Below, piece after piece: positions 54,919 through 59,110 of a stretch of DNA of 64,000 nucleotides. The stretch lies in contig CBDCTJ010000007.1 in NCBI GenBank assembly GCA_965222115.1, positions 1,952,001 to 2,016,000 of the forward strand, read 5' to 3'. Position 1 is the stretch's first letter. The number at the start of each line of letters is the position of its first letter. A program made the position numbers and the translations under genes. The notes under the pieces were generated by a model that made no database searches, was not told where the DNA came from, and saw only the letters and a list, made by a program, of their open reading frames with translations. This DNA is from Planctomycetota bacterium. GTDB taxonomy: Bacteria; Planctomycetota; PLA2; JAEUHO01.

Positions 54919-55701
54919 TTGGACGACACCGCCGCCGCCACTGCTTCCAAAGTCGCCAAGATTGTTCATCACGCCGACGCCATTCTGGCCGTGACGGGCG
55001 CAGGCATTTCTGTGGATTCGGGACTACCGACGTATCGTGGAACCGGAGGTATGTATACGGATCGTGATACCGACGACGGCATGCCTATTGAAGAAGCACT
55101 CAGTGGGCAGGTGCTCAAGCGTCGTCCCGATATTTCGTGGAAACATCTTTGGGTTCTGGGTGAGGCCCTGCAGGGCACGTCACCCAATCGCGGTCACGAG
55201 GTGTTGGTTGAGATGGAGCGCGCGATGCCTGCGAGTTGGGTACTCACGCAAAACGTGGACGGCTTTCATGCCGAAGCGGGTTCAAGGAATCTTATCGAGA
55301 TCCACGGTCGACGGGATCGACTCTCTTGCATGAGTTGTGACCGGCCACACCGTTTGAGCGAGCTCGTCGCCTCGGGTCGCGCGGCGCCGCCGCATCCGCC
55401 CACGTGCTTGGCCTGTGACGGGATCCTTCGCCCGGGCGTCGTGCTATTCGGTGAGATGTTGCCCGACGATGAGTACAACAAGTTGATTCAACTTGCCACG
55501 ATCCCGTTTGGCATGGTCATGAGCATTGGCACCTCAAGCCAGTTTCCCTACATTCAAGCACCCATGGTGTGGGCGCGCGATCTCGGCATTCCCACTGTCG
55601 AGATCAACATGGACGACACCCCCGTCACTGAGATCGCCACCTACCGTATGCGTTGCGGCGCTACCGAGGCGCTTGACGCGATCTGGGAGATGGCACAGTA
55701 G
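54919..55701 (+). CDS. cobB: NAD-dependent protein deacylase (sirtuin)
   Basis: TGAGISVDSGLPTYRG, TQNVDGFH, EIHG, two CxxC, RPGVVLFGE, GTS. Confidence 0.93.
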   Translation: MDDTAAATASKVAKIVHHADAILAVTGAGISVDSGLPTYRGTGGMYTDRDTDDGMPIEEALSGQVLKRRPDISWKHLWVLGEALQGTSPNRGHEVLVEMERAMPASWVLTQNVDGFHAEAGSRNLIEIHGRRDRLSCMSCDRPHRLSELVASGRAAPPHPPTCLACDGILRPGVVLFGEMLPDDEYNKLIQLATIPFGMVMSIGTSSQFPYIQAPMVWARDLGIPTVEINMDDTPVTEIATYRMRCGATEALDAIWEMAQ

Positions 55702-55767
55702 TCAATATCTCACGTCACGAGGTTCAGTTCTTTTCCGCATGCCAACTTGTGCGTACCGTGCGCGTTC

Positions 55768-56562
55768 ATGTCATGGCGCACATTCCCCACCCGCTTTTCG
55801 AACGCAACGCGCGGACTGCTTTATCGCGCCTATGAGCGCCGTCTGGTTCGGGAAGTTCGACGCTCTCCGGTTCCCGGCCACGTTGGATTCATCATGGACG
55901 GCAATCGCCGCCACGCGCGCGCCCTCAAGCGTCTTCCGTGGGAGGGGCATAAACTCGGATCCCAAACCGTCGAGGCACTCGTTGATTGGGGTCGCGAGAT
56001 CGGCATTCGCACGATGACGCTCTACGCGTTTTCAACCGAGAACTTTGACAGAAGCGACGCGGAAGTCGATGCGTTGATGCGCCTCTTTGCCGAGAAGCTC
56101 ACCGACATGGCTTCGGATGATCGCATCTTGGGCAATCGCGTCCATGTGCGCGTGCTTGGACGCACCGAAATGCTCCCCGCCGATGTCATTGCTGCCAAAG
56201 AGCTCGTCGAAACCACCACGCAGGACTTTGAGAACTACCGTCTCAACTTCTGCATTGCCTACGGCGGACGGCAAGAGATCATCGACGCCTTCAAATCGCT
56301 CATCATCAAAATCGAGCGTGGGGAGTTGGACGCCGAAGACATTAACGAGCGCATCTTGGGCGAACATCTCTACACCGGAGGCGATGACCCCGACTTGATC
56401 ATTCGCACCGGCGGTGAGGCCCGACTCAGCAACTTTTTGCTCTATCAAGCTGCCTATTCCGAGCTCTTCTTTACCGACGTTCACTTTCCGTCGTTTCGCA
56501 AGGTCGACCTCCTGCGCGTTATTCGTGCCTACCAACAACGCCAACGCCGTTTCGGCCGCTAA
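55768..56562 (+). CDS. uppS: cis-prenyltransferase (polyprenyl diphosphate synthase)
   Basis: IMDGNRR, YAFSTENF.R, YGGRQEI, PDLIIRTGGEARLSNFLLYQ, RRFG. Confidence 0.93.
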   Translation: MSWRTFPTRFSNATRGLLYRAYERRLVREVRRSPVPGHVGFIMDGNRRHARALKRLPWEGHKLGSQTVEALVDWGREIGIRTMTLYAFSTENFDRSDAEVDALMRLFAEKLTDMASDDRILGNRVHVRVLGRTEMLPADVIAAKELVETTTQDFENYRLNFCIAYGGRQEIIDAFKSLIIKIERGELDAEDINERILGEHLYTGGDDPDLIIRTGGEARLSNFLLYQAAYSELFFTDVHFPSFRKVDLLRVIRAYQQRQRRFGR

Positions 56563-56648
56563 GCTGTGCCCTCTTCCTTTCCCATATCCTTCTCCTAATC
56601 TGAATCTCTTGCCTCACCCCATCCCTTCTTCCTCGTATGGAGGCGTTC

Positions 56649-57953
56649 ATGTCGAAATGCCAACTGCCCCTTTTTGTCGCCATTGGTTTGCTGCTCATCT
56701 TCACGCCGTCCGCATTCGCCAAAGAACCAGCTGACGCACTCGACCAACCCAAACTCACCACCCCCAAACTAAACACCAAGAACTGGCGAGCAACACTCGA
56801 AGCCGTCATCCCCACCAAAAAGGAACTCGCCTGGCTCGACATTGGTTGGAAGCCCACGTTGTGGGATGCGGTCATCGAGGCACACAAGCAGAAGAAGCCG
56901 ATACTCCTGTGGGCGATGAATGGCCATGCCCTGGCATGCACCTGAAACAACGGCGTGATTGGCCGGCAAGTTTGTTGGTCGGATCCCGCGCTGGCGAAGT
57001 TGGCAGAAAAGTTTGTGGCTGCGAGCGATGAAGTGTGGCGCCTCCAGAATCGCAAAGACGTGGACTGCAAGTTCTTTCAGGGCTTCTGTGAGGAGGGACA
57101 CTACGGCGGTCGCACGAGACCAACGGGTACTCGCCAGGGCATCTACTGCTGCACGCCCTCCGGTCGATTCCTGGCATCGGTGAATACAACCGACCCCAAG
57201 CGCATGGCCCGCATGTTGAGCGAGGCGCTTGCCGCGTGGGCGAAGACACCCGAAGGTGACCGCTACCTGAACTACGACCCCGCCACCAAGGCGTCGTCAA
57301 TTGGTCGTGCCGAACAGAACGTACCCAAGGATGGTCTCCTACTGCGTGTGTATTCGCGCGACGTGCCGGCCCGCAAGGCCTCACGCGCGTGGCTTGAACT
57401 TGCCTGGAATGTGGATTCGCTTTGGTACCGGCGAGATGAGATTCGCGAGCTACTACCGAAGAAAATCGTCGTCGGAGCCAAGCAGATTTGGCCCGAAGCG
57501 TTGGCACAGCGGTTGATTCGCACGGGGCTGGTGGACAATGTGCGCGGGCAGACCCTTGCCTACGACGCCAACCACGTTCGGGATGCACAGATCAAATCCG
57601 AGATCACAGCAATCAACGAAGGCGTGGCCACCGTTCGCATATCGGGATCGACCCGAGCTTCTACGACCGAAGCCTGGCCCATTGGCGGGGAAGTCGCGAG
57701 TCTCAAGGGCGCGCGGGAGTTTGACCGCGGTGTGCGCACGACGTTGCTCGGTGAAGCACAGGTTCAATTGGACAAGCGTACGATCACCTCATTGGCGATC
57801 GCAGTCGCGGGAACCCGCTGGGGACGCACACGCTACAACTTTCGCGGTGGTGATGTCGATGAGGCGCCCATCGCCTTCGCAGTGCGTTTGGAACCCGATT
57901 CACCAATCGCGCGCGTTGCCCCCGCACACGTCTGGTCCTACGGCTGGGAGTAA
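56649..57953 (+). CDS. Putative exported selenoprotein (434 aa, Sec at codon 99), SelN/thioredoxin-like
   Basis: Track ORFs 56637-56945 and 56955-57953 are one frame interrupted only by TGA 56943-56945: GHALACT-U-NNGVIGRQVCWSDP. GGAGG RBS, signal peptide, downstream hairpin. Confidence 0.8.
56957..56985 (+). promoter_or_regulatory. Candidate bacterial SECIS element
   Basis: GAT-TGGCCGGCA-AGTT-TGTTGGTCG-GATC stem-loop; the G-containing apical loop begins ~23 nt after the UGA. Confidence 0.65.
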
Positions 57954-58048
57954 CGCGAACACGTTCGACTACTTGCTGCTTTGGATTCTCGACTCCGTGA
58001 GTACCTTGCACCTGCCGTCTTAGGCAGGGCGGTCAAATCGGAGCGGAG

Positions 58049-59110
58049 TTGATCAAGTACATCGGCTCAAAGCGGCGGCTGGTCCCCGTGCTACAGGCGA
58101 TCTGCAAAGGGGTCGGCGCGAGAACCGCGCTCGATCTCTTTACAGGCACAACGCGCGTCGCCCAGGCATTTAAGCGTGCGGGCGCCCATGTGACGGCCGT
58201 CGATGTCGCCACCTACTCCGAGATTCTCGCCAAGTGTTACGTGGCGCTCGATGCCGATTCGATCGATCGGGAGGAGCTCCAACAAGCGTTGGATGAACTC
58301 GCCGCGCTTCCCGCACGACCTGGCTACTTCACCGAGACGTTTTGTGAACGCTCGCGTTTCTTTCAGCCCGAAAATGGTGCCCGCGTGGACGCGATTCGTG
58401 AGCGCATCGAACGGGACTATGTCGATTCGAGGCTCTACCCGGTCCTGCTAACCAGTTTGATGGAGGCGGCCGATCGCGTGGACTCCACCACCGGTGTTCA
58501 GATGGCCTACGTGAAACGTTGGTCCAAACGATCGTTTCAGCCGCTCGAACTTCGTATGCCCGCACTGATTTCGGGTACTGGCGCCGCAGTTCGTATGGAT
58601 GCGCGCGCCTATCTTGACCAGTCTTCGATCGTGGATGTTGCCTATCTGGATCCGCCCTACAACCAGCACCGCTACTACACCAACTATCACATTTGGGAAA
58701 CGTTGGTGCGTTGGGACGCTCCCGAGCACTACGGGGTGGCCTGCAAGCGCATGGACTGTCGTGACGACGACACCAAGAGCGTTTTCAACAAGAAGCGCGA
58801 AATGCCCCTCGCGTTGGAAGACGCCGTCGCCGCTGTACGCGCAAAGCTCGTTGTGCTTTCCTATAACGACGAATCGTGGATCACGCGTGCACGCCTAGAA
58901 CAAGCGATGGCCGTGCATGGTCACGTAGAAACGCTTGAGTTTGATTCCAAACGCTATGTGGGCGCACAGATTGGCATTTACAATCCCGATGGGAAGCGCG
59001 TTGGTCAAATCTCTCATCTGCGTAATACCGAGTACGTGATTCTCGCCGGTGAAGCCGAGGTCGTGGCAGCCGCACGAAATGCGGTTCAGGCTCATCAAGA
59101 TCAGAGCTAA
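58049..59110 (+). CDS. DNA adenine methyltransferase (D12 class, N6)
   Basis: KYIGSK, DLFTGT (motif I), YLDPPYN (motif IV), LSYN. Confidence 0.92.
   Translation: MIKYIGSKRRLVPVLQAICKGVGARTALDLFTGTTRVAQAFKRAGAHVTAVDVATYSEILAKCYVALDADSIDREELQQALDELAALPARPGYFTETFCERSRFFQPENGARVDAIRERIERDYVDSRLYPVLLTSLMEAADRVDSTTGVQMAYVKRWSKRSFQPLELRMPALISGTGAAVRMDARAYLDQSSIVDVAYLDPPYNQHRYYTNYHIWETLVRWDAPEHYGVACKRMDCRDDDTKSVFNKKREMPLALEDAVAAVRAKLVVLSYNDESWITRARLEQAMAVHGHVETLEFDSKRYVGAQIGIYNPDGKRVGQISHLRNTEYVILAGEAEVVAAARNAVQAHQDQS

Follow-up and report, generated by a model that had tools for sequence, protein, structure and literature searches.

A probable exported thioredoxin-fold selenoprotein of Planctomycetota, annotated as two genes, and its likely distant kinship to selenoprotein N

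Gene structure and genomic setting

In the window, i.e., the whole 64,000-nucleotide stretch of Planctomycetota DNA analysed here, positions 56649-57953 of the forward strand form one frame of 434 codons followed by TAA, with codon 99 (56943-56945) as the sole in-frame TGA. Translation with table 11 breaks this frame into two pieces, a 98-residue ORF (56637/56649-56945) and a 332-residue ORF with a GTG start (56955-57953). A Shine-Dalgarno-like GGAGG (56639-56643, forward strand) is located 5 nt upstream of the ATG, and nothing Shine-Dalgarno-like was found in the sequence preceding the GTG at 56955. An earlier note on this DNA had described the two ORFs as one frame split by TGA, with a ribosome-binding site only before the first. 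Both points hold, as the 434-residue translation has one internal TGA with the junction described there. The whole gene with UGA read as selenocysteine (Sec) thus spans 56649-57953 (forward strand), a reading based on the frame, the conservation of the UGA column and the single copy of the gene in the source genome.

The N-terminus shows a probable cleavable signal peptide (residues 1-24; 56649-56720, forward strand), recognised by eye from its basic and hydrophobic parts and the sequence A-F-A. A hydrophobic stretch ahead of the domain was observed in 75 of 77 homologues compared to 26 of 393 internal control windows, in agreement with the signal peptide that the note had assigned to the first ORF. 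The signal peptide would lead the protein out of the cytoplasm, and we consider export very probable. The two annotations almost certainly represent a single gene, which encodes an exported Sec-containing thioredoxin-fold protein.

The flanking genes, both on the same strand as this gene, encode an isoprenyl transferase on one side and probably a DNA methyltransferase on the other. The same-strand neighbours within 54919-59110 comprise a sirtuin-type deacylase (over the cut-off), the isoprenyl transferase and a weak Dam-type methyltransferase match. These neighbours were not common to homologous loci, and a search for a conserved neighbourhood at the family loci gave none pointing to a substrate or reductant.

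Domain architecture

The protein contains a thioredoxin-fold domain of the Thioredoxin_7/AGR/DUF255 type with a helix in front (residues ~57-203; 56817-57257, forward strand) and a C-terminal beta-sheet domain with an invariant D-N-V-R-G-Q-T stretch (residues ~222-434; 57312-57950, forward strand). In the predicted model, the redox residue is located at the start of the helix following the first core strand of the thioredoxin fold. This is the place of the UGA (56943-56945, forward strand), read as Sec99 in the sequence G-H-A-L-A-C-T-U-N-N-G. The model is consistent with the thioredoxin-like redox fold that the note had proposed at the UGA, and a redox activity can be presumed. The resolving cysteine of the C/U-x-x-C motif is absent, since the window protein has U-N-N-G.

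Thioredoxin_7, DsbD-gamma, DsbH, AGR2/AGR3/ERp18 and DUF255 are related domains (PDB 3f9u, 2lst, 3ph9, 3ira and 2ju5). Compared to these domains, however, the window protein lacks C-x-x-C and has an extended G-H-x-L loop and a fused beta domain. It did not reach the Pfam cut-offs.

Selenocysteine machinery and family distribution

The note had named selA, selB, selC and selD as genes to look for. The first three are present in the genome, with selA at 481 bits, selB at 347 bits and tRNA-Sec at 72 bits, each above its curated cut-off. selD also scores above the cut-off, but its reading frame is broken by a frameshift at the end of contig C1, and no contig piece spans the gene. The C1 end duplicates the start of contig C7 in a 328-nt overlap inside selA, with 4 indels in 328 nt. 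Compared to contigs of run X4, whose study is possibly the assembly's own source, the C1 end shows ~24 indels and 2 listed substitutions. Because of these indels, we read the selD frameshift as a probable assembly error at an error-prone contig end. C1 and C7 can be joined via the selA overlap, and selD then lies directly after selA.

Searched against 1.8 billion representatives, the family profile retrieved 610 clusters (50% identity) at E of 1e-30 or lower. A profile of the C-terminal part, which does not see the Sec site, matched 121 of 401 Planctomycetota genomes, and selA was found in 117 of these 121, compared to 290 of the 401 overall. Among the four genomes without selA, G172 and G323 carry non-Sec forms and G354 is 67% complete, while the homologue in G004 (L037) has lost the N-terminal part bearing the Sec motif. 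Some homologues (P0127, P0173 and P0198) carry other fusions, namely to a PQQ/BamB-type propeller, to EF-hands (P0173) and to a SecDF head domain.

Conservation of the UGA column

In a set of 40 relatives, 22 of the 24 non-self matches carried one TGA at the codon-99 column, and the remaining 2 lacked the region. Among the best 80 GTDB loci, whose titles name mainly Planctomycetota and in several cases Armatimonadota, 79 had TGA at the Sec column and one lacked the region, a tally that, like the others given here, overstates independence because the loci and genomes counted are related. One of the GTDB search patterns required a Cys codon at this column, so that any bias would be toward Cys. 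Another 64, mostly divergent regions, which were picked by the C-terminal profile or L175 and several of which were chosen for stop-free frames, comprised 56 with Sec, 3 with Ser, 2 with Cys, 1 with Asp and 2 that were cut off. Of 260 database proteins retrieved, 244 matched only downstream of the motif, and the 16 that span it have, as read from the sequences, Cys (7) or no thiol (9) at the Sec column. In the Cys forms the frame is continuous across this column. Homologues with U or C at codon 99 and an alignment that continues across the UGA, both anticipated in the note, were thus indeed found, with UGA in 79 of 80 loci and Cys in 7 of 16 proteins; the thioredoxin fold would otherwise be cut after its first strand.

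The 56 Sec regions divide into 35 with C-x-U, 10 with C-U and 11 with neither, from which Sec rather than Cys97 appears to be the constant residue of the family, the Cys of C-T-U not being invariant. Furthermore, many members have lost Cys97, and roughly half of the non-Sec forms carry no thiol at this position, so the fold also has a role without redox chemistry.

A conserved SECIS-type hairpin

A bacterial SECIS-type hairpin was located at 56957-56985 (forward strand), with an upper stem formed by 56961-56968 and 56973-56980 and the loop AGUU at 56969-56972; a possible lower stem extends it to 56951-56993. Its first base is the 12th nucleotide past the UGA. It consists of a 4-bp and an 8-bp stem and has its loop 23 nt after the UGA. 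The upper stem has a stability of -8.7 kcal/mol, and the hairpin ranges from -8.7 to -10.6 kcal/mol. The SECIS model in the covered part of PMC13188914 places a G within the first two positions of the loop, 16-37 nt downstream of the UGA, and has a stability of at least -7.5 kcal/mol. The window hairpin agrees with this model, as judged by our own simplified filter instead of bSECISearch. The filter, set up after the same part of that paper, accepts an unbroken stem of at least 6 pairs with G-[GU] at loop position 1 or 2, the loop 16-37 nt after the UGA, and -5 kcal/mol or better.

Taken alone, the window hairpin does not exceed chance in stability (z of -1.0; 28 of 200 shuffles fold equally well), and 16.5% of synonymous recodings of the gene pass the filter. 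Its weight thus comes from conservation across the family and not from its own stability. In a set of 79 genes (the window gene and 78 loci, with L089 and L119 excluded), 68 passed the filter and 11 failed, compared to 12.7 expected from synonymous recoding and a pass rate of 5.6% when the filter was applied to other codons in these genes. The codons downstream of the UGA were unusual as well. Codon +7 was one of the Arg codons AGA (32), CGG (24) or AGG (16) in 72 of the 79 genes and CGC in 3, and codon +8 was CGG in 50, CAG in 24 and CGC in none, as opposed to the rest of these genes, in which CGC accounts for 1293 of 2354 Arg codons (55%) and AGA for 2%. The main stem register pairs in 81.7% of cells versus 23-53% when slid, and 20 compensatory changes were observed at the loop-closing pair.

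RNAalifold gave no single consensus for the 79 sequences, in which three registers are mixed. The loop lies in registers 19, 23 with a 3-base loop and 23 with a 4-base loop across the family, indicating that the hairpin slid along the coding sequence, and in the window's clade the register is shifted by one base. The stem-loop with a G in its loop that the note had seen 12 nt past the UGA is recovered, beginning at 56957 with the loop AGUU and with an excess in the family of 68 of 79. SelB would act on this hairpin, 12-40 nt past the UGA, to insert Sec at codon 99, and on these sequence grounds there is little room for doubt about the insertion. The recoding mechanism itself is ordinary.

Relation to selenoprotein N

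The note had called the protein SelN-like. Scanning metagenomes with a short motif yielded 31 loci, of which nine were used as full-length animal-type sequences and one was bacterial (L159). The profile built from these sequences retrieved UniRef and nr entries that bear the name selenoprotein N, which fixes the SELENON label. A search with L159 gave about eleven Planctomycetota proteins with a beta domain followed by thioredoxin and a D-D-x-S-C-U motif. These proteins (L159 and L162-L171, in G015, G039, G053, G067, G076, G194, G313, G355, G367 and G388) have the SELENON order and an in-frame UGA.

Profile comparisons were made with HHalign, whose values are pairwise and uncalibrated against a database. 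In the deeper profiles, the thioredoxin domain of the window family matched that of the bacterial SELENON-order proteins (97.8%, E of 1e-12, score 79) and that of animal SELENON (88.8%, E of 2.5e-6, score 43), with Sec in one column in both cases. Reversed and shuffled controls scored 14-28, at most 28 and 19 compared to 79 and 43, respectively. The beta domain of the bacterial SELENON-order proteins matched the animal one at 99.9%. The C-terminal domain of the window family, in turn, could be aligned along its whole length with the SELENON-type beta domain of the bacterial proteins (83.6%, E of 8e-6, score 41), compared to 12 for the reversed control and up to 22.7 for 40 block shuffles. Across 15 resamplings this score was 33-43. 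When members were compared singly, 6 of 13 scored above every one of 250 unrelated ORF pieces. The alignment was colinear over 128-167 columns and included a common stretch, F/W-x(3)-E/D-x(3)-L-L-P-x(4-5)-G-x(2)-W. In addition, the beta domain of L175 matched that of the window family at 97.9% and the SELENON-type domain at 91.3%. L175 and L192 (G403:C104:17662-19810) are a tandem pair of a thioredoxin-first C-U selenoprotein and a non-Sec paralogue, and it is the beta domain of this pair that bridges both groups.

Some comparisons gave weaker results. A beta-domain profile built from the GHPL-type (core) members only reached an HHalign probability of 42-50%. HMMER cross-searches of the beta domains against genome decoys were not significant (best E of 0.3). 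The beta domain of the window family compared directly with animal SELENON was likewise not significant (E of 0.16-0.18), with single sequences within the control range. This last result would fit a kinship of the thioredoxin domains that is merely Thioredoxin_7-wide, together with a convergence of generic beta sheets, the function being the same; so would the many Planctomycetota Sec-thioredoxins without the beta domain, which score similarly and fall between both groups in a midpoint-rooted tree. However, the colinear end-to-end alignment, the shared motif stretch, the far lower controls and the bridging protein argue against convergence, which we consider unlikely. The domains of the window protein are instead probably the two domains of the SELENON luminal core in reverse order.

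In the midpoint-rooted tree of 71 thioredoxin domains, animal SELENON and the beta-first bacterial proteins grouped at 99/98, and the window family was on a separate branch. The window protein resembles animal SELENON (SELENON/SEPN1) in its extracytoplasmic thioredoxin-fold domain of the same type with Sec in the same column, and probably in its beta domain, which is linked via the bacterial intermediates. However, the SELENON architecture of membrane anchor, EF-hand, beta domain and thioredoxin domain was not found. The thioredoxin domain precedes the beta domain in the window protein as opposed to the reverse in SELENON, a cleavable signal peptide takes the place of the membrane anchor, and no EF-hand was matched. 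Furthermore, C-T-U replaces the S-C-U dyad (C-T-U-N in place of S-C-U-G), and the SECIS is in-frame and bacterial. The bacterial SELENON-order proteins are likewise exported with the same Sec-UGA column and match in both domains by profile, but they keep the SELENON order and D-D-x-S-C-U and join the animals in the tree. They appear to be the better SELENON orthologue candidates.

Because these other Planctomycetota proteins group with the animal protein, the window protein would be a domain-swapped cousin of SELENON and not its orthologue. The label SelN-like thus stands for the distant homology with Sec in one column but not for orthology, given the separate branch and the reversed order. 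Similarly, the long C-terminal domain that the note had called uncharacterised is present, but by its profile match it appears to be a SELENON-type beta domain placed after the thioredoxin domain. We slightly favour the view that the SELENON luminal core is an old bacterial envelope module with both orders in Planctomycetota and their neighbours, with the window gene in a large, undescribed and circularly permuted branch and animal SELENON derived from a smaller branch of the other order.

Proposed function

In the predicted structure of the mature protein, the thioredoxin domain comes first and a large, curved beta domain second. Sec caps the N-terminus of the active-site helix, a position otherwise taken by the attacking cysteine. 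The selenolate would attack an oxidised thiol group or a peroxide on an envelope substrate selected by the beta domain. Because the usual resolving cysteine at +3 is absent, Cys97, in members that have it, or an external reductant would resolve the adduct. SELENON is described, in the covered part of PMC10650576, as an ER redox regulator of SERCA. Considering the fold, the position of Sec and this reported role, we lean toward a periplasmic selenolate oxidoreductase.

Sec99 could instead be a sensor of envelope oxidation or a ligand binder, with the two-domain unit relaying to a partner. The unit is indeed fused to Ser/Thr kinases in P0124, P0231, P0249 and P0251, where it is C-terminal after a hydrophobic stretch, and three of these four have no thiol at the Sec column. 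EF-hands are present in the homologue P0173 as in SELENON (PMC10650576, in the part covered), and an invariant Q-G replaces the Pro seen in the alignment before the beta hairpin of SELENON. However, most members of the family occur as separate exported proteins with no signalling gene nearby, and the strict retention of costly Sec fits catalysis, so that sensing is rather improbable. Still less likely is the binding or detoxification of a soft metal(loid) in the periplasm by His-x-x-x-Cys-x-Sec ligands. The His of the motif is nearly invariant in the core family, and the C-x-U/C-U selenoproteins catalogued in Table 1 of PMC13188914, as far as covered, include metal-handling ones, but both His and Cys97 are replaced in divergent members that retain Sec, and no recurrent metal-resistance genes occur near family loci. 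The indel errors at the contig end and the two ORFs called in databases might point to a sequencing error or to a genuine stop, in two genes or a pseudogene. This reading is refuted for practical purposes by the recurrence of the codon at one alignment column in Planctomycetota, Armatimonadota and other groups, the truncation of the fold that a stop would cause, the continuous Cys forms and the synonymous-site constraint just downstream of the UGA.

Comparison with known selenoprotein families

No NCBIfam model matched the window protein at E 0.1, and Pfam gave no match. One family member touched NF041382 at E 0.09, and none of 126 aligned members matched Sec.1, NF041072, NF041382/3 or NF041199 at E 0.01. 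According to the covered part of PMC13188914, the family shares an in-frame SECIS and a thioredoxin-type fold with these catalogued selenoproteins, which bear C-x-U or related motifs, i.e., Sec.1, the ferredoxin-thioredoxin reductase-like NF041072, the VPGUxxT proteins (NF041382/3) and Trx7/PDZ (NF041199). No entry for the family, nor a SELENON-like one, was recognised in the covered part of the 119-family table of that paper (2026), where the comparison by sequence covered the families with an NCBIfam or Pfam model. A literature search found no paper on the family, with BSepDB (PMC13326102) and deep-Sep (PMC12013277) covered in part, and no description was found in the covered parts of SelCysML (PMC13745706) and PMC4807772 with its Table S9. 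The note had claimed that standard pipelines would miss the protein, and the family is indeed split in two in databases and has no Pfam/NCBIfam model. The added point is the probable two-domain, reverse-order kinship to SELENON in a family that appears large and uncatalogued.

Since the family is cut in two in databases, selenium use by Planctomycetota is under-counted. If both domains are swapped SELENON homologues, the human myopathy protein, for which a search of solved structures gave no match, would acquire soluble bacterial relatives suited to expression, crystallisation and assay, natural Cys variants among them, and its non-thioredoxin region would be defined in evolutionary terms. If an old bacterial module with both orders is the true origin, soluble bacterial versions would be working models for the structure and direct chemistry of SELENON.

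Other Sec-thioredoxins were observed as well. The source genome (G000) has frames with UGA at a thioredoxin-type active site at C7:385693, C3:503399, C1:30977 and C7:1777813, with the motifs F-C-U, I-W-U, G-U-P-P-C and G-U-L-G-C and weak matches to the family profile. Many further exported Planctomycetota Sec-thioredoxin families without the C-terminal beta domain (L173-L191), nearly all with UGA, carry motifs such as G-L-U-S-A-G-H, G-C-U-A-A-G and F-C-U-x-N.
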